A stretch of DNA of 64,000 nucleotides, taken from positions 13,952,001 through 14,016,000 of the forward strand of contig OZ076409.1 of assembly GCA_964187785.1 (NCBI GenBank). The letters run 5' to 3'. Origin of the DNA: Amphiscolops sp. MND2022. Lineage: Eukaryota. Under the pieces are notes generated by a model, which was not told the origin of the DNA, ran no database searches, and was given only the letters and a program-made list of their open reading frames with translations. This document shows, piece by piece, positions 21,643-64,000 of this stretch. Position numbers and translations under genes: made by a program. Position 1 is the first letter of the stretch; every line of letters starts with the position of its first letter.

Positions 21643-21660
21643 GTCCCTCTGTGGTCGCCA
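21643..21660 (-). promoter_or_regulatory. Primer binding site of element 1 (tRNA-Arg-like)
   Basis: Minus-strand TGGCGACCACAGAGGGAC is complementary to a tRNA 3' end (GTCCCTCTGTGGTCGCCA). The isotype is inferred. Confidence 0.75.
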
Positions 21661-21676
21661 TAAAAACTATTCCAGA

Positions 21677-32013: not shown

Positions 32014-33107
32014 ATGCCGACTACTAGAACTGGCTCTCAATCAGACGAAGAGGGGTCCACCCACCTAATCGAATGTACTGGCAAGGGTCCCGACAAGGGA
32101 AAGGGATGCCAATCCTGGGTCCCCACATGGCTCCCGAAAAAGATCCACAAGGGTTTCATGGAGGGTGGGCGGAAGTAGGTCGAAGGAACGGGATCGAAAA
32201 TCAGAGTTAGTCCTCAGGTCGACATACCAAATTTTTTGAATGGGATCGAAACAACTCAGATCGAAATTTTTATAACGTAGTCAGATATGTTCACATACCC
32301 CTAGTGCCCTGAATGCAGGAGCGAAGCGAAGCGGAGCGACGTGCCATATGGACATGCCTCAATGTTGCTACTTGGCGAAGGGAGCGAAGCGACCGAGCCA
32401 TACAACAAATACGATAAAATTCGATCGCATTCCTTTCGATCCCTGCAATTCGATCAAAAGGTTCGACCTCTGTCCTTTCGACCAGAAAAATTTGACCTAT
32501 TTACAGCCACCCACTATGTGGCTTCTGTGCAGCAGCTGAGGTGGCCGACTTGCAGTCCAAACTTGCCAAAATTACAGAAAAGCCTCAAATCAGCGGAGAG
32601 CTGTCCAGTCTTTTCAATGCCGATTCAAACCAGCAATATGGAAGGCGGGACAATGTCCGCATATTTGGGGTGGAGGAGGCACCAAATGAGGACGTGTATC
32701 AGGCTGTGATCTATGTGGCAGAAAAGGCGGGATGTCAGGTATCCAGAGCGGACATCAGCATCTGCCATAGGGTTCCCAGCAGAAATGTGAAGCCTGGCCA
32801 AGGGCGCCCTATCATTGCAAAATTTGTAAGGAGACAGACCAAAATCGGGCTGATGACCAACAAAAAGAAGCTCAAGGATAGTGAAAATAAAATTTATATC
32901 AACGATGATCTCACGCTACTACGAGCAAGGTTGGCTAAGGCATTGAGGCAAAGACAAGATGTAACTTCTGTGAACATGATTAACGAAAAAATTGTGGTGT
33001 ATCAACAAAATGATACAAAAACTGTCTTTGATAGCCTCTTCAAATTATATGAATGGGATCCTGATTTTGTCTACTCTGTATGCAAAAGTAGTCTACATTT
33101 TTGTTAG
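32014..33107 (+). pseudogene. LINE ORF1 (Cys-containing N-terminus plus L1-type RRM/CTD), interrupted by a MITE
   Basis: QQYGRRDNVRIFGV, ISICHRV, RPIIAKF and IYINDDLT motifs; ATG 32014 joins in frame across 32163-32512. Confidence 0.8.
32163..32512. mobile_element. Short (350-bp) copy of MULE-like element A
   Basis: Same TIRs as 28618-29992; no TSD visible. Confidence 0.8.
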
Positions 33108-36100
33108 GGGGCCCTCTAGCTTACAAATTGAAACGTAAAAAATCAAAGCCTAAACATAAAAACAACTTAAAAGAACAAAGTGTTGAGAACGAATGGATTT
33201 TTCATTTGAACATAAGGTCTATCGACTACAATTTTGAAGAACTAGAAACGCATATAGATACCTTTCGTGAAAACAAACCGTGTATTATTTGCTTGTCCGA
33301 AACATGGATGACTGAATCCTCTGACAAAAATGCCTACGCACTAGAATCCTATGCACCTATGGAATTTGATCCTGGTTCAACAAGAAATGAAGGTGTTGCA
33401 ATATATGTCCATGAATCGCTGGCATTTGAACTTTTGGAGCTTAACATACAGAAAGATTCTATTCCTGATCTAAACTATAATGGAGTCAATTGTACCGCTA
33501 GGAATAAGGAAAAATTTACCGTTGTATGCTTATACAATTCGCCTTCCGTAAATAAACATGATTTCTTGGATCAGTTTGAGTTACTTCTTGAGTCTCTTAG
33601 TCAAATTAAGAACTACTATCTAATAGGCGATATTAATATTGACCTCTTGGAATGCAACCCTGTTGCTCTGACAAAAATGCCTACGCACTAGAATCCTATG
33701 CACCTATGGAATTTGATCCTGGTTCAACAAGAAATGAAGGTGTTGCAATATATGTCCATGAATCGCTGGCATTTGAACTTTTGGAGCTTAACATACAGAA
33801 AGATTCTATTCCTGATCTAAACTATAATGGAGTCAATTGTACCGCTAGGAATAAGGAAAAATTTACCGTTGTATGCTTATACAATTCGCCTTCCGTAAAT
33901 AAACATGATTTCTTGGATCAGTTTGAGTTACTTCTTGAGTCTCCTAGTCAAATTAAGAACTACTATCTAATAGGCGATATTAATATTGACCTCTTGGAAT
34001 GCAACCCTGTTGCAGATAGGTATCTGAAATTGTTGGAAATTCATGGTTGCGCCCAAGGAATCGAAGAACCAACCCGTGTAACGCTTGACTCAGAATCGTT
34101 AATCGATCATATAATCCATAATGACTACCAAAGTCCTCTGGAATTTGGAGTTATCAAGACGTATATTACAGACCATTTTGCAACCTATGTTGATTTGAAT
34201 ATAAGTAAATCTAAATCCATTCGTTCTCAACATTTTTTTAAGGATAGACCGTTTCTCCGGGACGGTAATGCAACAAATCACTATCTAAATTACTTAAAAC
34301 ATTGCCTGGAACTTGTAGACTTAGGACAGGACATCAATGCATCTACTGAATCGTTTGCCAATGCAATATCGGAAGCAGTTAATGCTTTCACAGTTGAAAA
34401 ACAATCAGAACACCAAGATGCCGTAAGACCTTGGTTCACAAAGGAAGTAAAAAAGGCCTTAATTCGAAGAAATTGTAGTTTCCACAGATACAAGCGCTGT
34501 AAAACCTATCAGAACAAGCTACGCTACACAAGAGCTAGAAATAATGTGCACCAGCAGCTTCGTAAAAGCAAGCGCGAATACTACGATTCACGTCTGAATG
34601 GGCTTATTAATAATCCTAAATGTTTCTACAAAGAACTAAACAAAATCACTGGTAAAGCAACAAAAAATTCCAACTTTGTTATCAAGAATGATAAAAATGA
34701 ATTGATTACGGATGATATTGATGTGGCCGAATCGTTCAATGAAAAATTTGTTTCCATCAGTAAAACCTTAGCTGCTTCAATTGATAATGTCCCATCCACG
34801 ACTTATGGTATAAAAACTAATGAAAAATCACTATTTTTTTATCCAGCTGATGGCACTGAGATTTCGAGGATTATAAAAAATCTTAAGAACCATAAATCAC
34901 CTGGTCTAGATGGACTGACTGCAGAAATACTAAAAGTGAGTCACGATGTAATAGTTGAAAAATTAACTCATCTCGTGAATGAATCGCTAAAAAGTGGAAC
35001 ATTTCCTCAGGTTTAGAAAACTGCGAGAGTGGTACCGATATACAAATCCGGCAAAAAATCTATACGTGAAAATTACAGACCCATATCTGTTTTATCAGTA
35101 TTGAGCAAAATATTTGAACGTGTTGTGAATGAACGATTATATAATTTCATGGATAAAAATAAGCTATTATACCCAAGACAATTTGGATTCAGGTCAAAAC
35201 TGAGCCCCATCCACGCTCTTTCCGATATTACAGAAATGATTAGGGATAATTCTAACCTCAATATTTCTTGTATTTTGCTTGATTTACAAAAAGCCTTCGA
35301 TACAATAAACCATGAATTTCTCTTGTATAAACTCGAAGCATACGGTGTCAGAGGGGTTTGCTTGGATTGGTTCACATCATATCTAAGTAAACGAAGTCAA
35401 TGTGTTTCAATTAACGGTAAAGTCTCAAAACCATTACTTATTGACTGCGGCGTTCCTCAAGGATCTATTCTTGGCCCACTGCTCTTTATAATTTATGTAA
35501 ATGATTTCCCGAACTCGTGTAAAAACATTATTCCGTTTCTCTTTGCGGATGATGCTAATTGCGTTTACGCGAGACCCAAAAATGAAACATCTACATTACA
35601 AGATGAAGTTGAACACATTCCTGGATGGATGGCTATGAATAAACTCAGTCAAAATATTCCTAAAACTGAATTGGTCCATTTTTTAAACTGCAAAGATGAA
35701 AGCATAGTATTGAAAAATACTGAAATAACATGTACTGAATACGTTAAATATCTGGGTATCTTACTTGATAAAAATTTAACTTATGGTTTCCACGTCAAAC
35801 GAGTACTGAATAAATTAGCTAAACATGTATCCATTATTAACCGTCTAAGGCATTTCACCAGTAGTTCGGTAGAGATACGATATTATAAAACATACATGAA
35901 ACCAATTATCCAATACGGACTCTTGATATATGGGTGCACGAGGAAGAGTGTACTGAATGATATATTTCTTGTTCAGAAAAAAATCCTCCGTATTACATAT
36001 TTTAAAAACAGACGATATCCATCGGATAAATTGTTCAAAAGAAGCGAAATTATGAATGTTTTTGATCTATACGTATTTGAACTATTAAAATTCGCCGTGC

Positions 36101-36393
36101 GTTCTAGTAGAGAAAGTCAACTGCATAATATCAAGAGCGTATTTATCCACAAAAATTCACTTGTTTTTACTCGGAGTGTTTCTTCCAATATGTTTTATGT
36201 ACCTGAAGCACGAACGCAAGTTAGCCGACAATCACTAAAATATCGTGGAACTGTCTTACTGAATCATCTACTAAAAACGATGCTATTACCTCGCAATTAT
36301 GAATCTATCGGTGAAAATGAGACTAAAAGATTGATATTAAAAATTAAAAACAAAATAAGTAGCGAACGTCTGGCAGACATAGTTTTTTGTTGA
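33101..36393 (+). pseudogene. LINE ORF2: APE endonuclease and reverse transcriptase
   Basis: HLNIRS, LSETW, GDINID, SLIDH and TDH endonuclease motifs; YRPIS, QFGFR, DLQKAFD, GVPQGSILGP, FADD and KYLG RT motifs. Disrupted by a 347-bp duplication and a TAG at 35014-35016. Confidence 0.92.
33320..34013. repeat. Tandem duplication, 2 x 347 bp, inside ORF2
   Basis: 33320-33666 is nearly identical to 33667-34013 (one substitution seen); causes a frameshift. Confidence 0.9.
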
Positions 36394-38607: not shown

Positions 38608-41600
38608 TCCATTTTTATTGCATAACGACCTGAATATTTTCCAATTTCTCTTTGCTCTCTCGATTGTTTTAGTAGAATGATCCCGGTAGTTGAGCTTGCT
38701 ATCGATAATTACTCCGAAAGACTTTGTTGTTTTTTTACCTTGACATATATCACCATTGAGGCAAGGGAGTTCGAAGTCATTCTCTTCGCAATTGAAAAGG
38801 ACTAATTCAATTTTTCCTCCGTTCACTAACATCCTTCAATCTGCACACAACTTCACGATGTCAGAACAAGTTTTTCGAAGGATAGCAGATAATTCTGACG
38901 GATCCTTGCCAGTGGCAATGAGAGAACTATCATCTGCAAACTCGAATTTTTGAGCTTGACTACCGAGGAAGTCGTTTAGGAAGATGATGAAGAGCAATTG
39001 TGACAACACACTCCCCTGTGGAACGCCAATGTCAATCTGGAACTTCGGCGATTGGTATTCATTCAGTTCAATTGAAGCGACTCTGGTTTTTAAGAACGAT
39101 TTTATTATCTGATACAATGTGCTAGAAATATTGTGTTCCAACAGTTTAAAGAGAAGGCCGTCTACTCACACGCTATCAAAAGCTTTTTCGAGGTCAATGT
39201 TAAGCAGAGCCGTCGGTAAACGTGAACGTTCGGCATTTTCCAGCATGAGATGTAGTCTGTAGAGCGATCGAGTGGTGTTTCTTTCCGATCTGAAACCCTC
39301 CCGTTCGTCACCAAGCAGTCCATTCACATCGAGATGTGATTTGATTTCTGTTGGAAGTATCCTTTTCAACTTTTTGCTGATATGACTGGATATTGAGAGT
39401 GGTCGATATGAAGGGCATTCATCATATCTCTCTTTGTTTGGCTTGCGAATGAATACGACTCGTGACTCCGTCCATGGCCACACATGATATTCCCAACAAG
39501 CATTGAAAATATTCAGCAGAAAAAGGAGTGCCTTAGTTCCCAAATTCTTTATCATTGTCAAATGGAGACCAACAATATCAACAGAATTAGTGTTGCTTGA
39601 TTTCAAAATGGCATTCTTCAATTCATCGAAAGTAATTTTATCATGAAATACTTCAATATCATGTTCAGGACCATCATGTGGTTGACTTATTTTGGCTTCT
39701 ACTGGTAGTTGTGTTGCATTGTTGAAAATTTGCTTTTTCAGATGTTCTCCTCCGGAGAACGTGGTTTCAAATTCTTTGCTAATTTCCTCTGGAGCATGTA
39801 AAAGTCTCCCTTCTTTACTTCGTATTAGACCAACTTCTTCATGTTTAGTGTTGAGTAAGGCCTTGTAAGAAGTCCAAAATTCTCTTCCTCTTTTATGCCC
39901 AAGCGATAAAAGATAGTTTTCCATCCATTCAGTTACATTTTTGTTGGGTAGAATTTTGAAACGTTCCTTCGCTGCCTTTAGCTTTTGCTCATTTTCAAAA
40001 TTTGACTTGTACTTGAAATTTTGCGTAAAAATCGGAGTTCATTGCTTGCGTCTGTCAAGTCTGAGTTCCAAAACGGTTTGCTATGATTTGAAACACATTT
40101 GAGGGGTAAATGACCAACGGAAGCTTCGTGCAGCAGATTCTTGAACTCGTTCCAAAGAAACTAGGGTCGTCCCCAACAGCCATGAGATCATCAATTCGTC
40201 CCTCAATGAAAGAAGTCCAACCCACCCAATCAGGTTTTTCAATCCATAATTTCTTGGTTTTCTCAGTGATGCTACTACGCTCCAAGCTCATAATAACAGG
40301 AACATGACTCCTCTGTGGAGCACCGGTGAACAGCTCAGCAAATTCATCCGTAGACAGAGAGTGTTTACATCTATCAAACAGAGGCCCATAACAAATGCCG
40401 AGATCGATAACACTGTAGCCATTTGTTGCCAAAAACGTAGGCTCCCCATCATTGAGAATGCTGATGTGGTCAGCTATTTGAACCAGTTCCTCACCTGGCA
40501 AGTTACACTATTTGGCTCCCCAATAGGTATGTCTTGCATTGAGATCACCGAAGAAAAGAGCTCCATTCAGGCAATTTTTGTCAACATACGTTTTGCAACT
40601 CTGTATAACTTTTATTGTTCTTCTCAATCGTTTGAAGTCATCGGGTCTGACATATGCAGTAGACACAACTAACTTAATTCCGCTCGGCCTAACAGTCAAA
40701 ACAACAATATCAACAGAGGTGTCTTCGAGTTGAATAAGTCTTGAGTAAGGGATGTGATTTTTCAATAAAACTGCGACGCCTCCATAACTTCCACCCATAG
40801 AACTGAATATTGTGAAATTGTTGAATAGATTTGCGCTAATTTGTGTCTTGGTTTCATTAGGAAAAACGATATCAGCTGTGGTTTATTGTAAGTTTTGATT
40901 CAATGCTATTTTACTATGACCACTCAGGCCGCATATATTTATCTGCAAGAAAGTGAAACCACGGTTAGCCATCATTTTGTGACACAGGGTTTCTCAATGT
41001 CGGTGCTTGTACACCTCGTTCCTCATGAACTCTTTGCACCTGTTTATCATAAGTTGGGCAGTCAAAAGAATCAGCCTCGTAGCTTCCGTTGCAATTGGTA
41101 CACCTGGCAGGCTGATTACCGCTGCAGTTGTCGATAGAGTGCTCACCGGAACAATGTTTGCATGATACTTTCGAATGGTAATTGGAACTGACGTGTCCGA
41201 ACTTCTGACATCGGTAGCAGCTGAATATTCGTATTCCTTGCTGTATGAATTCGACTGGTTAATAGTACAAATGGTCAATGAAAATCCCGTCGGTTGTTGC
41301 CTTGTCAAACTGGGCTTTTGAGGGAAACGTCAGTTTGACAGTTTGCAGTGATTGTCCATCGCTTTCGACAAAGCGTCTGATTCTGACACCTGGAAAATTA
41401 TCCGTTTGAGCTGAAGTCATGTCCGAGTCGGACACTACTAATCGAACTCCACGTATTACAGCGCTGTGCTGTTCATTCCTGTCACTAGATCTCCGAGCAG
41501 ACGAGTCGCCGCCAAAAAATTCAGCCCTCCATTCCTGCAAAACACAGTCAGCTTCCTCTGGTGTTGTACACTCAAGATGTATACTACCACGCGCTGTAAT

Positions 41601-47549: not shown

Positions 47550-48045
47550 CAGCCAGCAACAGCAAAGCGCAGAGCCACAAAAGTTGTCCTCGAAGAGAAC
47601 ATCCAGCAGGAAGCCCAGAGAGAGGAGGGGGCCCACACGGAACACAGCCAGCAGCAGGAAGCCCAAAGAGAGAGAGAGGGGCCCACACGGAACACAGCCA
47701 GCAGCAGGAAGCCCAAAGAGAGGGAGAGTCCCACACGGAACACCACCAGCAGCAGCACCGCCCAGATCCACAGAAGTTGTCCTCCAAGAGAACAGCCAGC
47801 AGGAAGGCCAGAGAGAGAAAGGGTCCACACGGAACACAGCTAGCAGCAGGAAGCCCAAAGAGAGGGAGAGTCCACAAGGAACACCACCAGCAGCAGGAAG
47901 CCGAAAGAAAGAAAGTGTCCCACACGGAACACCACCAGCAGCAGCACCGCCCAGATCCACAGAAGTTGTCCTCCAAGAGAACAGCCAGCAGGAAGGCCAG
48001 AGAGAGAAAGGGTCCACACGGAACACAGCTGGCAGAAACGCAGCC
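47550..48045. repeat. Purine-rich minisatellite with higher-order repeat
   Basis: Recurrent CCACACGGAACAC...CAGCAGGAAG...GAGAG units of ~50 bp; a longer block is repeated at a 189-bp offset (47741 and 47930). Confidence 0.85.
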
Positions 48046-49978
48046 CAGGAATAAAAAGGTCAACAAAGAAGTTGAGGTTTGGGGCAAGGCACAGAATTGG
48101 CAGTTGTGCGTATAAGTCTCATAATCTGTTAGAATCAGAAGCTAGGATATCGCTTTAGATAAAAAGTGATTTGTGATTGAAGATTGAATTTGACTTGGTT
48201 ACTCTTGCTTGGTTGCAAATTAAATGATAGAGAGTTAAAGAAAGAGCTCCAGATGAGGCATAATGTTCCAAGGTTGGAATTGATGTTGATGGTTCAAGAT
48301 CTGCACAGTTGTTGTCATGAACATTACGGTGTGCTTTGTCACCATGTTCACTATTAAGAGTAGTTTTAGCTTTCGCGTTGTACTGAACTTCGGAATAACT
48401 TTCCGGTCTCTCATCAGATCTCTCCCATCCCCTTCTAGTCTCCTGTCCTGAACCGGCCATAATAACGTTTTGAATCTGGGGTAAAACCTGATTATGGATG
48501 GCGTCACTTATGGCTCTCTGAATCTGGGAACTAACACTGTTCATCGTCTCATCCATCTCTCTGGATATTCTAGAGTTCAATTCACTAGATAACTTATTGA
48601 TCTCGGCTTGAGAATCTATACTTGCTGAATTTTGGTCATAACCGGCACTAGTTCCGACTCCAAGATTTCTATGATCGGAATGGAGACTCATTTCTCCATT
48701 TTCCAAGTTATTACTTGTAATACTTTCCTGCCTTCTTATGGAAGTTCCATCGAGACTTCCGTCTCTTCCCGTATCTTTGAAGTGATTTTCCCCTAACATT
48801 ATGTCAAGGTTTTCAATGTCAGAGAGGATTTCTAATCCTCTAGATTTCCTTGCTTTCTTTTGTTTTCTTGTAGTAGGCATTGAGACTAAACCGGGTCGAA
48901 TACTTGAATTATCAATTCCGGAAAATAAACAGTGAAACCGTTTGTATTTTTGAACGTCTTTATCAAATGAAGGAAAGTACAAAGTATGAGCCTTCCTGCA
49001 GGGGTATGGGTATTTATACCTCTGAAAGGATGACACACACATTTTTGACATACTTTGACCAAGACAAATCATAAGATTTTACAATCATCATAGGGAAATC
49101 CCCGACAATTACATATTTCCGGGGGACATTTAAGGAATGGTATTCAGAGTCATCATTTTAAGTAGCAACTTCAAACAATCTATCGGTTAGACCTACTTCA
49201 AGTGTGATGTAAACAAATACCACAACTTGCATATTTCATAGTGATGTGAAATGAAGGCACGTGCCGGCACAAGTTTACTACAAATCAAGCTGAAAATGGA
49301 ATGTACTACTATGTGTGGAATTCCATTACTGCATCGATATTCACGAAAATACACTCACATATCAGAGCCGGAATAGGCCTAAATCCATAACATGTACTGC
49401 ACATTTGAAGGACATGGTAAAAGGCCTCAACCGTCCCTTTATTCAAGTTGAAAATATACCGACATCAAAACACCACAAACGTATTTATTTGGACTAAAAT
49501 CATGATTCTAATAGCTCCGCGTAAGTATTGATTCAATTAGGCAACGAAGGTATTATTATGCTTGAATTGGCCGAAACCGTCCATTTGACTGAGGGACTGA
49601 TATAAATTAGCACCGCTTAGTCAATAGGCCTTATCCGGCCATCATAAATAAAGCACTCATAATTAGCAAAAGGAAAGCTCTGATTGGCTAATAACCGTAC
49701 TGAAAGTTACATCGCCGAGAAGGAACATTTTCTCACTTGAACACGTTTCCTTCTCGCGATTAACCTGCTTATTGTACGTTACCGCTTTGATCAAATTTCA
49801 ATACTCTATTTGTAATACAGCAAAACTTCTTTTACAAATCTCAAACTACAACCTGATTTGGATAGTTCCAAATCGTAATTTTAACAGACTAATATCACGA
49901 ACAATCATATAAAAAGCACTTGATTAAACAAAAATGAATGTGATTAACAAATAAATATAGGTTTCAGCAAGGGAAAGT

Positions 49979-50764
49979 TTAAAACGTGGGTAGGGTACCT
50001 GGGACGATTTCTTGATTTTCCGCTGACGTCGTTATTAATATACCGTCACAGGCGGCAGCCTGCGACACTGCGAGTGTTATGAAGAGGAATGCTCCGGCGT
50101 TGAGGCCGTTCTCATATGCTTCCCTTCTGATTCTCGTGATGTACTCAGGCTCTCCTCGCGGTTTGGACCTCGCAACATACCATTCTACCTTCTCTTTCTT
50201 TATTGCTTCTGAGGATCTGCCACACACCATACAGCCAGAATACAGTTTATTGCTCACGTTCTCGTACGGCCTTGTGTTCTGCACATGGAACGACGCGTGG
50301 AAATCACCCACGATAGGCTGCATCAGGGGGGTGTCCAAACTTGGCCCTCTCTCATGGTCAGGCGGTGACATAGGTGACTCTGGCACTGGTAATAGAGTCT
50401 TGCAAATCTCTATTCTTGACTTTCCCAATTTCTTTGGGGGAGCATAGCACATCTCTTGGTCAAAATACTTGTGATTCAGCTTTGGGGTCACCTCAATCTG
50501 CACCTGGCCTGAACTGGGTCCAGCTACTGGTTCTTCCTCTGTGGGTTCGTCTACTGTCATTATACGGCCCCCAATCAGCATAGGGCTAGAGGTGACTTCT
50601 CTCTCAACCCTTGCCACGAGCTGCTCCGTGTCAGGAGAGTAATTTGTCTCCCAGTCTGAAGATTCTTCCTCACTGCTGGAAATGTATATTACCGATCTTT
50701 CGGAGTCCTCTGAGTCGTATTCTTCCAGATCGAACAATTTCCTAGCTAAGTTGTATTTGCTCAT
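49979..50764 (-). CDS. Unknown 261-aa acidic protein with a CxxC motif, in the inferred LTR
   Basis: ATG-initiated intact ORF; acidic N-terminus and CMVCGR motif. Confidence 0.6.
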   Translation of the reverse strand: MSKYNLARKLFDLEEYDSEDSERSVIYISSSEEESSDWETNYSPDTEQLVARVEREVTSSPMLIGGRIMTVDEPTEEEPVAGPSSGQVQIEVTPKLNHKYFDQEMCYAPPKKLGKSRIEICKTLLPVPESPMSPPDHERGPSLDTPLMQPIVGDFHASFHVQNTRPYENVSNKLYSGCMVCGRSSEAIKKEKVEWYVARSKPRGEPEYITRIRREAYENGLNAGAFLFITLAVSQAAACDGILITTSAENQEIVPGTLPTF

Positions 50765-51098
50765 GATAACCTTTTTTGCTATTTTTGAAGCTGTTCGAAG
50801 TAACTGGGTTGAAGTGAAGTTTGTAGTAGAATGAATTTATCAGTTTTAAGAATTTAGCCGAATCAAGCCTTTTCCCGAACTTTCCAATCCGGCGGGAGAA
50901 CCTTAGGTTAATTGTCCCAATCCGTCGTAAACTTTTCTGAATGGAATTCTTACACTGGTTGGCAGCCGCTGTTAATTGATGTTTACCCCCATCTAAGTTG
51001 TCATCAAAGAGGGTGTAAACCGCACTCGAGTTGTTGATATCAAATATTTCTTTCTCGAGCAGGTAATTAACGGCTTGCCTGAGAGCAATTAACGGCAC
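50742..51098 (-). CDS. Unknown basic ORF overlapping the 261-aa ORF
   Basis: 118-aa ORF with a non-ATG start in the track; possibly a spliced exon or a fragment. Confidence 0.35.
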   Translation of the reverse strand: MPLIALRQAVNYLLEKEIFDINNSSAVYTLFDDNLDGGKHQLTAAANQCKNSIQKSLRRIGTINLRFSRRIGKFGKRLDSAKFLKLINSFYYKLHFNPVTSNSFKNSKKGYHEQIQLS

Positions 51099-51655
51099 GC
51101 GACTCGAAATACTTCCAAAATGGCTTCAGCCAATCAGAATTAGGCTTTGATAATTTGCAAAATTGAATAATAAAAATGGCAAAAATAATAAATTCAAATA
51201 GTCCACGATGGCGAAAATTCTAGCTAAAGGGTAACTAAGGCAACTGAACGAAACGGCAAAACAAAACAGGGCAAACGGCCATAACCGGCCTCTAACTAAA
51301 TAAGTTGTAAATAACAAAGTTCTTTGTACATTTCGCTGGCAGACTCCATGTACAGAATAAATATGTAAATAATCGAATAATGTTAGTCTGGTAATTTCTT
51401 CAGCCACGAACTCCAATTTCTAATTCATTACATTTGTATTCCAATCCAATTCCAATATCAATTATCTCGCTTTTGCCTTGTTCATTCACACTCTCCCGGC
51501 TGACATCTATTTATTCACATTCATAATACCCTCATTGCCGTCTCCCTCCAGGGTATCCTTATCCTCCTTCATTTTCGACCGTGAGCGGCCATCATCCACA
51601 ACTCCAATCAGTCAGCTCAAAACAACTCTCTTTGGAGCAACAACACTGGAGAGAC

Positions 51656-54600
51656 ATGTCTTCAAACACAGGTTGGTCTGGTTTTCATATATTGAACTAG
51701 TTTAGCTTGATCAGGGCTAAATTTGTTCACAATAAGCTTCCTGTTTCCACTAACAAGCGCGTGACAGCACATTTTGTTCAAATTTTCAAGTACTTCCGGA
51801 AGGTTTCTTATGCGGTAGAATGGATTCTTTTCGAGGAAGCATACCGCCAAACGTTATCTCTTTTTGTTTAGAGAATCAATTAACTGAAGTTGTCAATGCA
51901 CCAGCCAAACCTGCTGCCACTACTTCAGCAGCTAGTCCACCAACCGAAACTGGACAACAAGTCCAGAATCCAAGTGTGCCCCAAGAGTTGTCTCGAAGCC
52001 GGGCAGATGACATCACCTCTACTCACAGCGCCTACAGTGACCCAGATGTAACATCATATGCTGAGTCCATGCTCCAACGAATGCAGCAGACACAACTTAT
52101 CGCTACACACGAAGAGAACCATCCTACGTCTGTCCCGCTGCAGAGCCAAGAACAGGTCAATGACCCTTCAGGATTGGTATTAACGACTGCCGAGAACCGA
52201 AGGTCGAGTACACCCATCCAGTCTGATGAGGAGGAGGTCCAAGAAGCTGACTTGTCAGCTTTGGAGTTTGCCCTGAGGGTCATCGAGGCCTCTGAGTCCC
52301 AATTGCCTGAATTGAGAAACGAGACTGCTTCAGACCAAGTGGACGCAAGTGGTGTCCAATCCAGTACTGACGAAGATTATGCCTCGTCAATTTGTGATGT
52401 ACCCGCTCTCCCGGGAGGTGACCCCAAAGTACGGTTCGCTGAGGGGTTGGATGAAGCAGAAGAGTCTACTGGAGAGTCAAGTCGACTGGTCCCGGTAGAG
52501 TTGTACGGACGTCCCCTTTTCGGTCTTGAGTCCGTAACTGAATGTGAGGGGGATACCAGTTCCGAAGGGCAGCCTTTGGAGACAGGGAAAACATGGACGG
52601 CTTGCGGGAGTTCAAACCAAGACAAACTCCCAGATCTCTCAGGTCGCAGTAGAGCCATCCTGAAAGAGTACTTCGAGGAGGCTTCCCCTATTAGACTTCC
52701 CGTTGGGCATACTACCGTAGCCTTCACAGAGCCCCAGGTTTATCACCTCCTGCGTACCCTCACGGATAAGACCCTCCGCAAATCCTTCAGTACTATGGAA
52801 AGAATGGTACTTGATGCTGTCCGAGGTACCCCGACCGCTCTCCCTTCACGTACCTTTCACTTCCAACTAAAGAGGAGAGCACAGACCCCCGGACCTGGGT
52901 GCCAAAGTGATTCTGAAACGGAGAGTGACCCACAAGGAACAGCCTCAGATCAGCTTGGGTCGAGCAGTGACGGCACTGGTGATGCTTCCTTCTATGAAGA
53001 GACTGATAGTGCCACTGAGATGGACTTGATAACGAAGTCCTTCAAGCAGACCCCTCCGCAACCTCTAGTCAGAGAGGTTCAAACGGACACGCCAGGTAAC
53101 CAGCAGCAAACAGGACTTGAAGTAGAAGGACCCAGCAGTCAGGATACTACCTTACATGAGATGCGTGAGCAGGCTCAGAGGGACCTAGGAGAGGGACATT
53201 CCAAGTTGAAGAAGAAAAAGGGCAACAAAAAACTTTCCAGGAGAGGAGTGCCCATGAGGGAAGAATTCTTCTGTAAAATAGGGTGGACGAGGTCGTTCAT
53301 TTCCTGGCCGGCAGATCCTCTGCATAATCCACATATGGTCTGGTGCCATATTTGCAAGAAGAACTTTTCTATAAAATCAAAGGGGCCCTACGAGATCTTG
53401 AGACATCATCGGACAGACCGCCATTTGAGACGTGATCAAAGGTGGCGTTACGAACACTTGCGTAGTGTCGACCCCGTTAGTGGCAAAGTGCAACATCGAG
53501 TCAGAGGTGCCAACGGCAAAATCTTGACAAAAATCGAACTGGCCAATCAACTACCCAAATTCATCAATGCTGAATTAGTGGACATCGGGGAGAGATTCCC
53601 CTTTTACGAGGATTTCATTCGAGGGACTACTACAGCCTTGGTCACACAGGAAGCAAGGGTCAAGACCCAACTTTGCCTGGTGGGGGATTTCATAAAGACC
53701 CTGGGTGACTTGTCTGTCCTGAGGAACCTGTGGGCTAGAATGGGAGCTTTCACCAACCACCAAGCTACTGTATGTGATTTTGACTGGGGCGAAGAACGTA
53801 TAAGTGTAAGTATATTTTCGGTGACCTGTCCACTAAGCCGTGTATTTCCTTCCTAGGAGTTTTGTTTCTCTTACAGGCAATCTTTCAACATTTCTTCATG
53901 AATGCCCTGAGCGACGTCGCTGAGCACGTCGCCGCCGAACAATGCTTCGCCATTGAATTCGAGGCTGCTGGAATTTACCGCTATATGACAGTCAAATTTT
54001 GAAAGGGTCACGAGCTTTGCCGGGTCTTCATTTGCAGAAGTTCTCTTCCTGCAACTGACATAACAGGTGAACTAGGCTCCCTGGCTCGATTCTTGTCGGC
54101 GGTTTCAACCCAACTAGACGTAGTGGCATGCTCCGGATGTCACGTTGACTTTGCCAAGACGATCGATCAGTCAGATTACTTCCCGCAAGGGGTTCAAAGT
54201 TGTTTCCGCTTTGAGCAGTTATCATTACCCACCTTGATGCACAAGTCCAAATATTCTGTCTTTGGTCAAATAGACTTCTTCTCCGTGCTCCAGGCCCTGA
54301 TGGTGTCCCTAGGTGGTTCACTTACTGAAGAATGCGCATAGCGGAGTCCAGAGCTCACTAAAATAAGTACTTCATTTTGCCTTTCCTTTGGTGGTCGGGG
54401 GTCGGTTAACTTAGGTACGGTAGGGAACAATTCCCAATAGCAAGATTGGTTTTAACAGGCGGTGACCAATTGCAAGCTTGACATCCAGACGCTCCCGGTC
54501 CTCTGTACGGAATTGGCCAAGGAGTGGAAATCCATACTTCGCTATTTGACAGAGCATGCCCCTATACAAGGAGGTCAAGGAGTCCGCAGCAGGGTTAGGT

Positions 54601-56025
54601 TTGATTTCATTCCTTTCTATGGTATAACCAAATAGTCCCACAGAGAGGTTCTTGGCTTCCCCTTGTTTACCGGGCGTTTGGCGAAAGCTGACGTATGTAT
54701 CTTGTTTAAGGTACAGAGCTTCGAGTGGTCCCTGATCTGTGACGAATTTTTCGTCGTCAAGTTGGAGTTCTTCAACAGGCTCGTGAGCGACTGTAAGTAG
54801 TCTACCTTTAGGGTAGTTGTTTTGGGATCTACTCTACTTTAGGCTTTGATTTGTGTTTCCAGACGTGGCTAGCTTCCCGGTGAATCTTCAGCACAGACGT
54901 GATTCCTCTTTCTATTTATGTGGGGAAGTCTGCCAATTCCTAAGCCTACTTTGTTCTCGTGCCTACACACCCAACACGGTCCCTCTTGCGAAAGCCTGGT
55001 TCCTGTTGTTACGATTCCAGACCAATGAGGCTACCTTCCTGGATGGGGAAGAGTATTTGGTTCGTCTGAGGCTCTCTCACAAGGTGTCAGCAGCCAGCAA
55101 AGCAAAAGCAGAAGGGATGCATTTTGGCAAAAAATCGGAGCGCCCAGCGATCCTGGCAACTACAGAGACTGTAAAGTCCGATTTCGTTAAGGATAGTCAG
55201 CAATATATCCAGTATCTGGTCAATGAGGTTCTTCGGCAGACTGGGCTAACTACCAACATCGTGAAGGGAATGGCCGCCTTCGACCCTTTTATTTTGTTTA
55301 AGCGGCCTATGGATGTAGCTCTGCGGCACTTCGACATCCTGTACAGTACTTTCTCCCTTCGCTCTTGGGTATCTAATGCCAACGAGTCCTTGTGTCGGGA
55401 TCAGTATATGCAGCTACTTGACCACCTGCGTACAGCCTATGACCCAAGTTTCGACATATCTAGTGTCTCTGCTGATCTAATTGAATTCCTGTCCGAGCTG
55501 GAATTTCTTCGTAATCGTAGCTACTTATTCTATTTGTTCAAATTGTGTTGCTTGTGTGCTACGTCTGTTAGTCCCACGTATCCTGATGTCACTTTCGGGA
55601 CAATTTCCACTGCTGGACGTCATAGCAGATTGACAGACGTCATTCTTCCCAGCCAAAGTTATGTAGCTAACGTGCGTGACGCAGTTGCTTCCTGTAGTGA
55701 TGACGGGAATCTGGCCAAGTTCATCGACTTCTCTTCTTCTTTCGGGCGCTCTGCATTTGCTCCCGATTATGATCCCTGGACGTACGTGGACAATTTCGGG
55801 CGTTCGAAGATTTATAAGTTGTTGTTGGCTTCCTACCGGACAGCTCTTTCGACCCCTCAAAAATCTCTGGTCCGGAGAGCGCCAGAAGATCAATGTTCCG
55901 TAGCTGATATGTCTGCTGTGAAAGCCCCTACTAGCACTAAGCGAAAGAAAATGGAACGTCGCGCTTCTCGCGCCTCCTCGTCATCCACTGCTGGAGCCAG
56001 TGAGCCTGGTTCGTCTAAAGACTAA
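51656..56025 (+). pseudogene. Antisense spliced gene: BED-finger, hAT-transposase-like protein (predicted exons 51656-51671, 51872-53805, 53877-54362, 54459-54593, 54711-54792, 54863-56025)
   Basis: Phase-compatible GT-AG introns join the 678-aa, 82-aa and 390-aa ORFs; WCHICKKNF...LRHHRTDRH finger. This copy has stops at 54000 and 54339 and an ATAAGT (mutated) donor at 54363. Confidence 0.72.
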
Positions 56026-56268: not shown

Positions 56269-59200
56269 TTAGTATCTGAAGTCGTCTGAGTAGTTTGGGT
56301 TAGGGTTAGGTCTGAGATTATATTTCCCTCCTCTGGGGCTCAGACTTTCATTTCTAGCATCGTTTTCAGATACTTCGGGCACGATAATATCATCCCCCTT
56401 GTTTGGAGAATCTTGTGTATCGTTTTCATTCGTCAAGTTTCTTTCTGAAAAATTTTCATTGTTTTCCGGTCTATCTGCCGTATTTGGCAATGATTTTTCT
56501 TGGTTTTTTGGGGAAACGGCCGGATTCGGCCAATCAGATTCTTCATTTTTGGTGACTGCAGTAGATTCATTTCTTTCAGTGACGTCATCATTTAAGTGGT
56601 CATTCCGGCTGTGCGCTGCGTTGTCGTTGTTCGTTACTTCTCGCGTGATTATGTAATCTGCTTCATTCTCGGCTACGTCATTTGTATTCGTTTCTGCTGC
56701 ATTCGGCCGTTCGCCATTCGGCATGCTGGTCGGAATAGTCTCGTTGCCTCGTGTAACTAGCTGCTCGCCAAAGTCGGTTTCCCACGTTATGACGTATAAA
56801 TCATCTTGCGGAATGACAAGTTTTTCGTCTGGCTGCAACTGTTGTTCTCGGAAATTATCCTCAAGCGGTTGATTGGGGACAAACTTCTTAAGGCGAATCC
56901 GATGCAGAATTTGAGTTTTGTTCGTGTTGATCCGTCGTACTATATAGTTTTCATTTGGCAAAACTTTTTGGACTACAAATGGTCCAACCCAACGAAAATC
57001 GCGGAATGGAATTTTTGATCCTTGATTATCCGCTTTCGGCTGTAAGACAAAACAGTATTCGTTCTCCTTTAGTGGAGCGGCTTTTGCTTTACGGTCATAA
57101 TATTCTTTGTACTTGATATACGACTGCATAATCTTCTGCTTGGTTTTGTCAATCGGGATTTTTGTCCGGTTTTGGATTTTTTCAGCAAATTTGGTTGTGG
57201 GGTTGATCTGCTCGTTTGGATTATTTCCAAGCTTGTGATCCAAGATATTAAATGGAATTCTTCCGTGAAATACTCTTCGGCTCACAACCGATGCTGGCGT
57301 GATAACTAGTATTATGATTCAGTACTGCTAATGGCAAGTATTTGTGCCATTGTCGGCGATATTCCCCACATGCCATTTTGAGATTTGTTTTCAATGAGGC
57401 ATGAGTTCGCTCCAATTTCCCAATTGTCTGCGGGTGTTTTGTCGTTGCATATTTGAGTGTGATGCCCAAAATCTGCGTAACCTCCGCAATAATTGTAGAA
57501 TAAATGCAGTACCTTTATCAGTGATAAGAGTCGTTGGTAGATATGAGTGTTTAGTCATGATGTCAATGAGCGCTTTTGCTACATTGATTGCTGATGCGTC
57601 CGTAAGGGGATAGGCGAACAGATATCTGGAAAATACATCAATTGCTGTTAAGATGTTTTCATACCCACCACTTGGGGGAAGATTCGACAATAGGTCAATT
57701 TGCATGGCGTCTTCAGGTCCAAGGTCCCATTCGGGTAAGTTGAGTAGTTCAGGTGTAATTGTTGCGTTGGGGCCTTTTTTGTCTCTGGCACATTGTTCGC
57801 ACCCTTCTACCCACTTTTTGACGTGCTTAGCCATGCTAGGGTAGTAATACCTCTGTCGAATTTCCTGCAGCATTTGTGAAATCCCAGGATGTTTCTGCGC
57901 TGTCCCGTGGAGAGATTGGAGCAATTCCTGGAGTAAATGTTGCGGGAGCAAAATTTGATGGTATTTAACATTCCCTGTTTCATCAAAATATTGCCTTGCC
58001 AGGATTTCGTCCTTTAGTACAATTCGTTCCAGATTGTTTACGTAATGTCTATATCGGGCATCCTGGTGCAGTAGATTTTCTGAATACTCTTCATGAAGCA
58101 GTTTTGCTTTGAATTGTTGTAGTACTGCATCTTTGGATTGCTCGATAATGATTTGGTTGTTTTCCTCAGTCGGTCTTGTATATCGGGGTGTTGCTTGACC
58201 AGATTTGTTGACAGAGTTTGTATAGTAACAGTGGGCTCATCAGATGCTGGATTTTTCCTGATTGCTTCTTTTCTTGCCCAATACTGTTCTTCTGTCTCAT
58301 CGTCGTCATTGGTGTAGAAGATTTGTTCTTCTTGTGACACCCCTGCGGATTGGACGTTGGTAGTGTTTGTACATCTTCACGAATTTTCATCACCAATTTG
58401 TCCTTCGGATCTGCTTCCCATCGGGACAAATAGTCGGCAGCTATATTTTGTGCCCCTGGGATGTGTGCTACGACAAAATTGAACTGGATGACACAATCAC
58501 ACGCGTTCCACAGGGCTGGGGGTATTATTTTTGTTTGAAAAAATCTCGTGACAGCTTTGTTGTCCGTAAGGATGATGACCGGTTTCGGCGCACCCCAGAA
58601 GTTATGTCCGAATTCTTTGAATGCAAAATAAATTGCAAGGAATTCCTTGGCATAAATTGACATCTTGTTTTGTGCTGGGGTGAAAGTTTTTGATCCATAT
58701 GCGACCGGTGCATACGATTTTCTGAGTGATGTAAATTTTTGGCTTGGGTCGTCTTCACTTAGGACCGCGTACCCGGCTGCACCAAAACTTGCATCAGTCA
58801 TTAGTGCTATTTGCTTGTTCGGAATTGGTTGCTGTGGGCCAGGTCGCAACATTTGTCTAGTGCTCTATTGATTTTTTCGAATTGTTGGACTAATTCTTTC
58901 GATACTAGGACCTTTTCGTCACTTTTGAGCATCTTGTAGAATGGAGCAAGGCGTTCGGAGAGTCTTGGGACATAATTCCTGTAGTAGTTTAGGAATCCCA
59001 AATAGCGCTGTAAAGCCTTTTTCGACTTCGGGAATTTGGACTCTTCCAGAAAGTTTTGCACGTTTTGTTTCTGGGGTTTGACGCATTGTGGGGTAATAGT
59101 CCGTCCGAGAAAATCAATTTCTTTTGCACCGAAGTGACATTTGTGCATTGTTAACTTAAGGCCTGCTTCCTGAATGCATTTGAACGTAGCTCTCAGGTTC

Positions 59201-61464
59201 GTCATGAGGTGGTCAGCATCATTGGCTGCGATGCCGATATCGTCCACATACTGGGCACACTGGTCCGCTTTAATGACCTTGTCGAGGTATTCCCTCATGA
59301 AACTCGAGAATGCGGATAGTGACCGACTAAGGCCTTGTGACAAACGTCTGTAGGCGAACGTGCGACTGGCAAAATTGAAAGCCAACATTTCGATTGAACG
59401 TTGGTCGGCCATTGGTAGGCAGTGGTATGCCTGCGAACAGTCTAGTTTACAGAACAGTTTTTTGCCTGCCAAGTGTTGCGCAGCATCAACTAGTGTACTG
59501 ACGGGGTGATTATTGTTCCTATAATCATCCGAGATGAGGTTGTTGATTTTTCTCAAGTCAACCAAGAGTCGGAGTTTCCCATTCGGTTTCTTTTGTGCAA
59601 ATATTGGACTCGCATATTTCGAAAATGGCAGTGTAGTTATTATGCCATATTTGTGTAACATGGCTAATTCAACTAGGATGTCCTCCTTCAATTTGATAGG
59701 AGCTGGAAGGTTTTGACTATAGGCTGGGGAATCGTCCTTAGGTATCAGTTTCACCTTGAATTCCTCCTTCATGCCTTTATCAAATCGGTGTCGTGCAAGG
59801 ATGTCATAGAATTCCACTAACAATTCCTCAATTTTCTCCTTCTCTTCAGGAGTAAGGGTGGAATCTTTCCAGTCAAAGTTTTCTAAGAATTTTGCACGCG
59901 ATTCCTCATCTTTGGTGGGGTCAAGTGTCTCCAGGTCCTGTAAGGCCTGTAATTCTCGAAGGATTCGTTTTTGTATAGGTGTGTGTTCCTCAGGATTTCC
60001 AGGATTTTCTGGAGTCGGAAACCAATAATTTTCGGAATTTTGTGGATTTCTATTGGTCTTGATGAGACTGCTGACATAGTGGGCTGCCTGCTCCTGGTCA
60101 TTCTGCAAAAGGTGCCAGGTTGATGCCGGATCTACCGGTTTGACATACTTCAACTGTTCTGGCGTCATGACAGAGAAATTGGCAATATGAAGTCCTTTTT
60201 TGAGTTTATAAGGGTGGTCTTGGTCTGTGAAATTGTTCACTGGTATCAATATATTGCCATAAGTCAGAGTGACCAAAGCTGGGCAAAATGTGATGTCGCC
60301 TTCTTCATGTAGAAGGTCGCTCGGTTGCAAAATTCCAGTGACAGCATTCTCAGGGTAGAGTAGGGAATTGGTCCTAATTAGGACTTTATCATTTGGTGGA
60401 ATAGTTATCTCAATAGGGTTGAGAATTAGTTCTAACACATTTGAATACTTATGGTCAGCCGTTTTGAGCAGCATCGAAAAGAACGGGAAATTCAGTATCC
60501 CTTGTCGCATGTCCAGAACTGTATGGTTTCTTTGAAGGAACATTAGTCCAATGATCGGACCTGTCAGATGTTCCATCATTATAAAAATCTCGTGAAACTC
60601 GATGTCACCAACTTCAAATTTGAGCTCTATTGTACTCTTAGGAGTTTCCAATTGCCCATTAGCGACCATTATTTGGAAATTCGGAGGCGGACCTTCTCGG
60701 ATAACGGATTGTGGAGATAAAAGTCGAATTTTCCGGAGGTCCATTTCAGGAATTGCACTGGACAGCGCTCCAGTGTCAATGAGTCCGTCAATGGTCAATT
60801 CCCCAAAGTCCATCGGGAAATACAACATGCGTTTTTTGCATTTCAGGTTGATGTTGGTTGACAGGGGTATACAGTCTGGTTCACCGTCTCTAGTGATTAA
60901 GACATTTTGGAACTGTTTCTCGTCTAGCAATGATTGTGGTGTGGGTTCAACCTTGCTGTCATGGGTCTCGGTCCCCAAAGGGTTTGGGAACACTGGATGG
61001 TTTGTGCCATCATTCATTTGCCAGTTTTCAATTAATGCTCTGGTCTTCTAATTGTGGGTGATTGGAGGGTTCTCGTGGACTGTCCGATTGTAGTGTTCAA
61101 TATCATCTAGAACGTATTGAAATTGTAATAGCTCTTGATTATAGATCTCGGTGTCCCAATAAGGATCTCTGCCGTAGTCTTGATCGATATACGTTGGATT
61201 GTAGTTATCGACTAGGGGAATGGGCCTGAACCGGGTAGTGAAGGTGGTGGTATAGTCAGGGTCCCAAACAGGAATTGGTTTTTGGAATAAATGGGTGTTG
61301 TTATAGGTGATGGTGATAGCTTCGTCCATCTGTTGCTGCCAGACAACAGAGGGATAGCCCATCAATTGTTGTGTATACTGATGAAAGGTTTTTGTTGGAG
61401 GATCCGACCTGATGTATTGGCGGACGGATATCAGTTCGTTGTATTGGAGTCGTGGCGAAGTTAG
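56269..61464 (-). pseudogene. pol: Gypsy pol: protease, RT, RNase H and integrase, frameshifted
   Basis: IDTGA; LRLLVDLRKIN, KLDCSQAY, YVDD; TDAS, KEFLA, TDNKA, AADYLSR; HHCC (H..H..CEQC), IDVFSRY, TDKG, ERTH. Confidence 0.95.
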
Positions 61465-63155
61465 TTTTTTGACTCATCATTAGAGGATGAGGATTGTGAG
61501 TTTGAAGATGTTGGTCTATTTTGCGGTTTCTGGGTCTTTGGAGTGGGCTTACCGTCATTGGCATCATCTGGTCTGGTGCGTTTGGGTTTGAGATGCGCAC
61601 CAGCACCTTGCCAGCATCTTTCTTCCGGGTGGTTCTTTTTACCACAAGTGCAACACTCCGGATACGTTTTCTTCTGTGTTTGTTTGCCTTGCTGGGCATC
61701 TTTTTCTTTTTTCTCTTTGATTTTTTCGCAGTCCTTGACCATATGGCCCTTTTCCTTGCAATAATTGCAAGTAATGTCTGACATTTGCCCAGTGGACAGA
61801 AGAGTTTTAGATTTTGTAGTTGAGGAGGTCATTGTGGCTATTGGTAGGTCATCTGATTCCTCAAGAGCGTCGACTTCCAACTCTCTCTCCAAATGAGCAA
61901 CAATTTCATCATATGAGGCATTTTCTAATCTGGCCATGTTGACGGACCGCTTCAATTTAGGTGGCAGCTTTGCGTAAAGCAAGCTGTCAATCATTTTCTG
62001 TGCATGGTCACCAAACGCCTTCTCGGCTCCCTGGTTTAATTCTTTGAGAAAGTCAGGCAGCTTCATCGTATTGGGATCGAAGACCAGACGGTGCCATTTA
62101 TGTTTGGCAGTCGCCTGTGACTCGGGCTTGACGTATTTTTGTCTAAAGATGACTAATACGTCCTCTAGAGTTTGTCGGTTGCTTGAGCTGATATTTCTGA
62201 ATGTCTGAAGAGCATTCTTCCTCAATAAAGAGTGGAAGTGATTGATCTTCATTTGCTCAGTCATTTCTGGCTGCATCTTGATCATATTGTGAAATAGGTC
62301 TTCGAACAGCTCGAATTTCTCACTTTTGTCATCGAATGTCATGGTATTTGAGTTGACTGGGCGTATGGTGAGTTGTTGGGCTGTCGGTCTACTCTGCATT
62401 GTGGTCAAGACGTCTGCCAGCCGAGTGATGGGGTCGGAGTCAGCAGCCGTAGCGATTCTCTCTTGTGCTGGGATCGTCGTGTCGAGGTTGATGTCCTCAA
62501 AGGACCTGTCGAGAAGATTTCTGGATGAGATTCGTCCTGCGAGAAACTCAGGAACTTGATTTGGAGATTCGTTGTCTCCTGTCACCATGTCATGAACATT
62601 ACGGTGTGCTTTGTCACCATGTTCACTATTAAGAGTAGTTTTAGCTTTCGCGTTGTACTGAACTTCGGAATAACTTTCCGGTCTCTCATCAGATCTCTCC
62701 CATCCCCTTCTAGTCTCCTGTCCTGAACCGGCCATAATAACGTTTTGAATCTGGGGTAAAACCTGATTATGGATGGCGTCACTTATGGCTCTCTGAATCT
62801 GGGAACTAACACTGTTCATCATCTCATCCATCTCTCTGGATATTCTAGAGTTCAATTCACTAGATAACTTATTGATCTCGGCTTGAGAATCTATACTTGC
62901 TGAATTTTGGTCATAACCGGCACTAGTTCCGACTCCAAGATTTCTATGATCGGAATGGAGACTCATTTCTCCATTTTCCAAGTTATTACTTGTAATACTT
63001 TCCTGCCTTCTTATGGAAGTTCCATCGAGACTTCCGTCTCTTACCGTATCATTGAAGTGATTTTCCCCTAACATTATGTCAAGGTTTTCAATGTCAGAGA
63101 GGATTTCTAATCCTCTAGATTTCCTTGCTTTCTTTTGTTTTCTTGTAGTAGGCAT
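61461..63155 (-). CDS. gag: Gag of element 2 (likely start MPTTRK at 63155)
   Basis: Intact ORF with a retrotransposon gag core and two knuckles (CNYCKEKGHMVKDC, CCTCGKKNHPEERC). Confidence 0.9.
   Translation of the reverse strand: MPTTRKQKKARKSRGLEILSDIENLDIMLGENHFNDTVRDGSLDGTSIRRQESITSNNLENGEMSLHSDHRNLGVGTSAGYDQNSASIDSQAEINKLSSELNSRISREMDEMMNSVSSQIQRAISDAIHNQVLPQIQNVIMAGSGQETRRGWERSDERPESYSEVQYNAKAKTTLNSEHGDKAHRNVHDMVTGDNESPNQVPEFLAGRISSRNLLDRSFEDINLDTTIPAQERIATAADSDPITRLADVLTTMQSRPTAQQLTIRPVNSNTMTFDDKSEKFELFEDLFHNMIKMQPEMTEQMKINHFHSLLRKNALQTFRNISSSNRQTLEDVLVIFRQKYVKPESQATAKHKWHRLVFDPNTMKLPDFLKELNQGAEKAFGDHAQKMIDSLLYAKLPPKLKRSVNMARLENASYDEIVAHLERELEVDALEESDDLPIATMTSSTTKSKTLLSTGQMSDITCNYCKEKGHMVKDCEKIKEKKEKDAQQGKQTQKKTYPECCTCGKKNHPEERCWQGAGAHLKPKRTRPDDANDGKPTPKTQKPQNRPTSSNSQSSSSNDESKN
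61464..61470 (-). promoter_or_regulatory. -1 ribosomal frameshift heptamer A AAA AAC
   Basis: Lies immediately before the gag TAA; the -1 frame is the pol frame. Confidence 0.75.
62570..62587 (-). promoter_or_regulatory. Primer binding site of element 2
   Basis: TGGTGACAGGAGACAACG directly follows the LTR end ...CATGACA. Isotype (Leu-like) is uncertain. Confidence 0.8.
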
Positions 63156-64000
63156 TGAGACTAAACCGGGTCGAATACTTGAATTATCAATTCCGGAAAA
63201 TAAACAGTGAAACCGTTTGTATTTATGAACGTCTTTATCAAATGAAGGAAAGTACAAAGTATGAGCCTTCCTGCAGGGGTATGGGTATTTATACCTCTGA
63301 AAGGATGACACACACATTTTTGACATACTTTGACCAAGACAAATCATAAGATTTTACAATCATCATAGGGAAATCCCCGACAATTACATATTTCCGGGGG
63401 ACATTTAAGGAATGGTATTCAGAGTCATCATTTTAAGTAGCAACTTCAAACAATCTATCGATTAGACCTACTTCAAGTGTGATGTAAACAAATACCACAA
63501 CTTGCATATTTCATAGTGATGTGAAATGAAGGCACGTGCCGGCACAAGTTTACTACAAATCAAGCTGAAAATGGAATGTACTACTATGTGTGGAATTCCA
63601 TTACTGCATCGATATTCACGAAAATACACTCACATATCAGAACCGGAATAGGCCTAAATCCATAACATGTACTGCACATTTGAAGGACATGGTAAAAGGC
63701 CTCAACCGTCCCTTTATTCAAGTTGAAAATATACCGACATCAAAACACCACAAACGTATTTATTTGGACTAAAATCATGATTCTAATAGCTCCGCGTAAG
63801 TATTGATTCAATTAGGCAACGAAGGTATTATTATGCTTGAATTGGCCGAAACCGTCCATTTGACTGAGGGACTGATATAAATTAGCACCGCTTAGTCAAT
63901 AGGCCTTATCCGGCCATCATAAATAAAGCACTCATAATTAGCAAAAGGAAAGCTCTGATTGGCTAATAACCGTACTGAAAGTTACATCGCCGAGAAGGGA
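62588..64000 (-). repeat. 5' LTR of element 2 (partial)
   Basis: About 7 substitutions versus 48313-49725 by eye. Confidence 0.9.

Follow-up and report, generated by a model that had tools for sequence, protein, structure and literature searches.

A spliced-looking antisense gene of probable hAT origin is a selected part of a Gypsy retrotransposon clade

How does a gene with introns come to lie on the opposite strand of a retrotransposon, and is it a passenger there or a part of the element? The question is raised by a stretch of 64,000 nucleotides from Amphiscolops sp. MND2022 (positions 13952001–14016000 of contig C1; hereafter the window, whose coordinates we use throughout), in a genome that we scanned over 1.07 Gb and 1929 contigs. 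The minus strand of the window holds a Ty3/Gypsy long terminal repeat (LTR) retrotransposon, and between its pol gene and its 3′ LTR runs a plus-strand gene that an earlier note, written from the sequence alone, had read as an intron-containing hAT-transposase derivative. We found that this spliced-looking antisense gene is a standing, selected part of the whole Gypsy clade. Its hAT origin is probable, and a role as a regulator of its own family is the explanation that we favor, with about an even chance of being right.

The antisense gene is a standing part of the clade

Pfam matches on the minus strand give the carrier a Gypsy order of domains: gag knuckle, protease (PR), reverse transcriptase (RT), RNase H, and integrase (IN). 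As in Ty3/Gypsy elements, gag lies upstream of PR-RT-RNase H-IN, and direct TG...CA LTRs are flanked by a target-site duplication (TSD) in the range of 4–6 bp, which measured 5 bp in seven of the eight copies compared (the boundary of the eighth is ambiguous). The LTR pairs of seven other full copies are 95.5–99.7% identical, and therefore the family moved recently. From pol toward the 3′ LTR, the layout is the plus-strand spliced gene, a spacer of ~890 bp, and a sense open reading frame (ORF3) that ends in the LTR.

The six exons of the antisense gene sum to 3816 nt (1271 codons and a stop) with consistent phases. The ~1270-aa product claimed in the earlier note is thereby recovered, its five introns proved right in coordinates, ends, and phases (including AT at the third donor), and the motifs that it quoted are found in the translated exons. 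The window copy is itself broken, with a TGA (54000) and a TAG (54339) in frame in exon 3, the non-canonical third donor, and a frameshifted pol. Among 19 other copies, GT/AG was retained at 185 of 190 splice-site positions, the third donor was canonical in 18, the lengths of exons 4 and 5 were constant in all, and seven were free of stops and frameshifts in every exon. Intron lengths vary over 22 copies from subfamilies down to ~65–70% protein identity (intron 3, 96–116 nt; intron 4, 110–124 nt), shifting by steps that are not multiples of three while GT..AG is retained. In deep clades, where exon 6 is only 28–37% identical, introns 2, 3, and 4 fall at identical codons in all four loci and intron 5 in three, the fourth being ambiguous. 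We conclude that this is a real five-intron gene, with its splicing predicted from DNA.

The ratio of nonsynonymous to synonymous substitution (dN/dS; Nei-Gojobori, window copy against three other subfamilies), a check suggested in the earlier note, was far below 1: 0.01–0.09 over the folded exons (finger region 0.01–0.03, exon 3 0.03, exon 4 0.07–0.09, exon 6 core 0.04–0.06), 0.15–0.16 in the acidic arm, and 0.18–0.29 in the tail. In most of the deeper pairs dS has reached saturation, and the single close pair (dS ~0.1) gave 0–0.46.

Does the gene always sit at this place in the family, as the earlier note had wondered? Genome searches with three exon-6 queries, each giving ~7000–7800 first-look candidates, returned at least 150, at least 110, and at least 109 matches in separate identity bands, counts that are lower bounds. 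The gene was continuous with pol in 18 of 19 near copies, the other being an LTR-bounded internal deletion, and its placement was the same in 20 of 20 copies at 64–91% identity and in all 30 loci compared at 28–37%, which represent 28 distinct places. Downstream of exon 6, an opposite-strand integrase match was present in 127 of 129 loci (duplicates included); the two exceptions are one internally deleted, LTR-bounded copy. The loci retrieved included no copy that was LTR-free or bounded by terminal inverted repeats (TIRs). For the converse, we took the best 40 matches to the integrase DNA (94–100%), of which eight overlap known gene matches by coordinates, compared by eye, and probed 12 of the other 32 over 200 bp each: exon 6 stood at the expected place and strand in ten (E 1e-15 to 7e-35), and two gave no match. 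The answer is thus yes in the forward comparisons and in 10 of 12 loci of the converse.

Nine of those ten exon-6 matches were measured, at 48–74% identity to the window protein, on integrase DNA that is 95–96% identical; old gene variants therefore ride on near-uniform pol. The branches of the exon-6 tree are much longer than those of the integrase tree (built by a quick method), both trees recover the same two distant clades with full support, and ORF3 types reassort against the antisense gene. Out of 1.84 billion representatives, a profile search picked 501 relatives of exon 6 (E≤0.001). Among ten that were looked up, all but one member came from ENA, and two match this genome at only 37–41%; judged by these matches, the gene family is therefore present in other assemblies too.

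A probable hAT origin

The predicted protein opens with ~440 aa of exon 2 that are acidic, rich in S, T, P, and Q, and disordered. Within this arm, a helical-looking island of ~60 residues (~52640–52830) is conserved where the clades are otherwise unalignable, and it is possibly an interaction or oligomerisation module. A basic run resembling a nuclear localization signal (53209–53232) precedes a finger, W...C-x2-C-x16-H-x5-H (53284–53424), whose C/C/H/H ligands and upstream W are kept in 118–120 of 121 sequences, so the BED-like finger of the earlier note is upheld as a conserved C2H2/BED-like one.

Leads to hAT come from several directions. The finger aligns in register with the BED of ZBED4-like hATs (E 0.005, probability 7%), at a score that none of 40 shuffles reached. 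The AlphaFold2 model of the exon-6 domain (pLDDT 90; a previous one from nine sequences, pLDDT 33, was discarded) is all-helical, with a weak likeness to Hermes residues 368–607, the region expected from domain order. In Atlas, halves of the protein score 0.86–0.91, which is lead level only, and all named neighbors displayed for two separate halves, from two clades, are hAT families. For the C-terminal PF05699 region (ERxFS helix), the match at rank 3 (score 0.89) has PF05699 on 60% of its members; 101 members of the present family gave no Pfam match, and the hhalign score was reached by 4 of 30 shuffles. Pfam, PDB-sequence, and Foldseek searches and most profile–profile tests for hAT were blank. 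Sequence searches of PDB with the gene product returned nothing significant; Foldseek of the model against PDB and BFVD returned nothing at E≤0.001, and a second look at its list found no transposase. Exon profiles reached a best E of 0.065 against 30 hAT loci of the same genome, hhalign against the ZBED4-like profile aligned the finger alone, and Pfam gave zf-BED an E of 4.1 on the finger, where the best matches are generic C2H2 (zf-C2H2_ZN292, E 1e-4). DUF4371 and zf-C2H2_12, tried for FAM200/ZNF862 likeness, matched nothing, controls included. A short finger pattern gave three matches versus two in the control (one retrieved was a decayed Gypsy), the word-index protein search with exon 6 gave none at the longer lengths, and the viral contigs searched for the gene gave none. 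Five 41-residue matches from a metagenome scan look like chance in an unrelated protein. Of the hAT origin claimed in the earlier note, then, the Atlas, Hermes, and finger leads stood and the significance-bearing tests did not follow, and the structural comparison likewise gave the weak Hermes likeness with no significant Foldseek match. We consider a hAT origin probable on sequence and model likeness.

The catalytic residues were placed in 26 sequences by a provisional register, fitted by eye to hAT motifs. By this hand register, the first D site is E in 22 and A in four, the second D site, before an invariant G, is S in 22 and T in four, and the E site is A, V, D, P, T, or S. The DDE triad and the CxxH of hAT appear absent; the catalytic loss suggested previously holds on condition that the hAT register is right. 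Around the gene, we found neither the TIRs nor the 8-bp TSD of an autonomous hAT. An 8/9 inverted match proposed before as a vestigial TIR was discarded as being at chance level: there are 66 such matches between the two spacers versus 31–50 in eight shuffles, this one lacks a flanking TSD, and 22 other copies do not keep it. Ordinary hAT transposases of the ZBED/Ac type are present elsewhere in the genome (L142, L144, L145); their D, D, CxxH, RW, and ERxFS motifs look intact, and they have no detectable relation to the antisense gene.

A predicted regulator and its rivals

We propose that a hAT-like gene kept antisense in a Gypsy element is now a nuclear DNA- or chromatin-binding regulator of its own family. 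The ancestor, either a DNA transposon of hAT-like kind or a host gene derived from a hAT, would have inserted antisense between pol and the 3′ LTR and been retained; its introns would survive retrotransposition because the genomic RNA reads the other strand, where they are no introns. On integrated copies, the gene would be transcribed from its own internal promoter in the divergent spacer, by analogy with maize Grande gene23, whose own promoter has been shown (PMC7264820). The selection data show that the gene came to be useful and passed down with the clade. The protein probably retains the layout of a hAT (a zinc finger, helices for DNA binding and dimerization, an RNase H-like core, and an insertion domain) with the catalytic DDE lost. 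Translated separately from Gag-Pol, it would act in trans, in the nucleus, as its basic runs resembling nuclear localization signals would suit. That selection on such a product has lasted would be easiest explained by recognition of its own family's DNA, and the protein may be a sequence-specific regulator, with an acidic disordered arm, that maintains transcription of its own family or protects it from silencing. Variants that diverged long ago would be exchanged between elements by template switching. The full claim of cross-class domestication, in which the clade holds a DNA-transposon transposase as a spliced transcriptional or anti-silencing regulator, with old swappable variants on near-uniform pol, we put somewhat short of an even chance.

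Several points weigh against this proposal. Every significance-bearing hAT search was blank, the best Pfam finger matches are generic, and Atlas stays at lead level, as would suit an orphan zinc-finger accessory protein (a captured host gene or other) with a superficial hAT likeness; and the swapping is equally explained by homogenisation of pol via recombination over old gene lineages, with no selection on variant differences. An orphan is nevertheless rather unlikely, given that all the named neighbors displayed for two halves and two clades are hAT families, that the Hermes match falls in the region predicted by domain order, and that the finger aligns in the BED register. A hAT insertion passively carried along by the retrotransposon is left with next to no probability and is refuted by the selection data: nested insertion is likely as the initial step, but a dN/dS well under 1 at saturated dS, conserved splice sites, one and the same place in three deep clades, and the lack of TIRs or a TSD speak against it, in keeping with the earlier judgement that this is no recent nested insertion.

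If the origin is hAT, the product could still have another job. Dimeric binding to transposon ends is an established property of transposase scaffolds, and a dead transposase might serve as a cofactor of integration or of the pre-integration complex, on cDNA ends or target chromatin, tethering an integrase whose C-terminus gave no chromodomain match by Pfam. Strong purifying selection across the whole fold would suit this role, which we consider unlikely but worth keeping in view; gene variants at 48–74% on integrase DNA at 95–96% disfavor a tight co-evolving contact, and a long acidic arm would be better suited to transcription. That the protein is still an enzyme (a nuclease or recombinase whose active site has moved, processing element DNA or targeting rival elements, for example) seems improbable: acids are invariant or nearly so at E27, D97 (26/26), D133, and E159 of exon 3 and at D140 and D204 of exon 6, and W is invariant at the presumed hairpin-tryptophan site, but the second and third canonical sites have no invariant acid in the hand register, and there are no TIRs to serve as substrate. 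On the sequences, a sequence-specific activator or anti-silencing factor fits better than an integrase cofactor, because finger and scaffold appear kept, catalysis lost, and an acidic arm added, and because the variants diverge much faster than integrase and swap.

Where might such a regulator bind? Intron 1 is conserved across clades (z 8.5–12.6), and introns 2–5 gave z of −1.1 to 1.0 in 11 of 12 comparisons and 3.2 in one. With invariant GGAAG cores in a cluster and a ACTTCCGGAAG palindrome at 51792, intron 1 is a candidate site cluster for the gene product. It may equally bind host factors of the ETS or YY1 type, and its conservation may be due in part to another in-frame start codon, at 51820. 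A structured RNA in intron 1 was rejected: folding gave z of −0.9 to 1.1, covariation was almost nil, and Rfam had no match. In the spacer, GGGTAA repeats are a weak candidate, picked post hoc; they number 2–5 per near-clade copy at mostly homologous positions and are absent in distant clades.

Lying in the pol–3′ LTR interval, present across copies, and selected, the gene is an antisense accessory gene of the Grande gene23, Retand, and brtn kind. The plant members, such as maize Grande gene23 and the ORFs of rice RIRE2 and of Retand (TRP28/PF04195), are antisense ORFs of Ty3/Gypsy elements (PMC7264820, PMC11963269), with the same place after pol and before the 3′ LTR, orientation, near-universal presence in copies, and predicted nuclear or DNA-binding role. 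Similarity to other transposable elements that would support a nested origin is lacking for them (PMC7264820), and the Retand ORFs carry a plant-only "transposase 28" domain whose role is not established (PMC11963269). Unlike these ORFs of unexplained origin, the present gene encodes ~1270 aa, with five conserved introns, a hAT-like domain order, and no match to PF04195 (TRP28). Outside plants, brtn of the Boty-like Gypsy elements of Botrytis is likewise reported as an accessory gene in antisense (Zhao et al. 2011, as cited in PMC7264820 and PMC8365987).

TnpA of En/Spm, which is reportedly transposase-derived, and VANC of VANDAL are, like the predicted regulator, mobile-element-encoded accessory regulators that bind DNA sequence-specifically (bioRxiv 10.64898/2026.08.24.746577; PMC13547354). 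The former source describes transposases as sequence-specific activators, and its main text does not mention LTRs or retrotransposons. Those proteins serve DNA transposons, whereas in this clade a class II transposase seems to be kept by a class I element. With hAT and domesticated hAT proteins (Hermes, ZBED1/4/5, FAM200, GTF2IRD2, ZNF862), the product appears to share a BED-like finger and the predicted domain order, and with many domesticated ones the apparent loss of catalytic residues; its fold weakly resembles the C-terminal half of Hermes. Unlike them, it has no TIRs, no TSD, and, by the hand register, no DDE, has a long acidic N-terminus, and lies beyond Pfam detection, and whereas a host-domesticated hAT is a single host locus, this gene is multicopy within a retrotransposon. 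Giant planarian Gypsy elements carry other accessory domains (PMC6431247), and ATLANTYS LTR elements co-opted host domains (PMC13547354). A search of the open literature, with subscription journals and Repbase outside it, found no report of a hAT-derived gene inside a Gypsy element.

For antisense accessory genes of LTR retrotransposons, the plant literature leaves both origin and function open (PMC7264820, PMC11963269). The present case offers a likely origin for one, and its hundreds of natural copies and many variants, with well-defined residues, lend themselves to testing. If the product is a regulator, element-encoded anti-silencing or activator systems of the VANC/TnpA kind would extend to LTR elements of probably an animal, outside plants, and a transposase would have been domesticated by another mobile element and not by the host. 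The gene may help explain the high copy number of the clade.

Features of the element and of the window

Table 1. Coordinates of the Gypsy element and its antisense gene in the window.
Feature	Coordinates	Strand	Remarks
5′ LTR	62588..64000	-	continues to 64342 beyond window; includes gag codons 1-189
gag	61461..63155	-	CCHC knuckle; TGG like a primer-binding site (PBS) within gag frame, immediately after LTR
pol	56269..61047	-	PR-RT-RNase H-IN; Pfam matches; frameshift in window copy
Exon 1	51656..51671	+	ATG + 13 nt; same-phase 16-nt ATG exon in two distant-clade loci
Intron 1	51672..51871	+	conserved DNA in three deep clades; GGAAG cluster; second in-frame ATG
Exon 2	51872..53805	+	acidic arm, island, NLS-like run, finger, then ~130 conserved residues
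Intron 2	53806..53876	+	
Exon 3	53877..54362	+	putative RNase H-like strands and beginning of insertion domain; two in-frame stops
Intron 3	54363..54458	+	donor non-canonical in window copy
Exon 4	54459..54593	+	
Intron 4	54594..54710	+	
Exon 5	54711..54792	+	
Intron 5	54793..54862	+	
Exon 6	54863..56025	+	all-helical domain, then basic low-complexity tail
Spacer	50765..51655	.	between divergent accessory genes; presumed promoter region
ORF3	49979..50764	-	261 aa; second accessory ORF; sense, divergent from antisense gene, ends inside 3′ LTR; no Pfam
3′ LTR	48313..50067	-	1755 bp; TG...CA ends; 5-bp TSD GTTGT; 99.26% identity to 5′ LTR

Much of the LTR is coding (gag at 62588–63155, the end of ORF3 at 49979–50067), and the PBS-like TGG lies in the gag frame. 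The polypurine tract that the earlier note had put at ~51491 is misplaced by 1.4 kb relative to the 3′ LTR, with ORF3 between gene and LTR. At the LTR itself (50068–50100), a polypurine tract is absent in all eight copies compared, a pyrimidine-rich coding stretch ending in CAG standing there instead; without one, plus-strand priming of the element has no explanation. ORF3 has an acidic N-terminus and a CxxC, falls into two or more types that are about 65% apart, and is also found at 44% in a distant clade. In one copy (L176, 708–3278), intron 2 measures 90 nt and keeps the frame without a stop, which makes exons 2 and 3 one continuous ORF; read-through of intron 2 may also underlie some database proteins of 796–844 aa (P0223, P0236, P0284). 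Another copy (L112, C5:60767103-60777102) has a tandem internal duplication with exon 6 and the integrase tail three times, and a further one (L034 with L055) a tandem 4.4-kb pol duplication.

Elsewhere in the window, a second, unrelated LTR-like element (11945–23541) has repeats about 10.5 kb apart (91–96%), a CCHC knuckle, an aspartic protease, and upstream an ORF of 500 aa (17699–19201), with no RT ORF of at least 150 aa. Remains of non-LTR retrotransposons with endonuclease and RT matches lie at 33092–36393 and 39166–40038, one with a 347-bp tandem duplication. A composite tandem array of ~47-bp units (47553–48062), open in several frames, adjoins the 3′ LTR.
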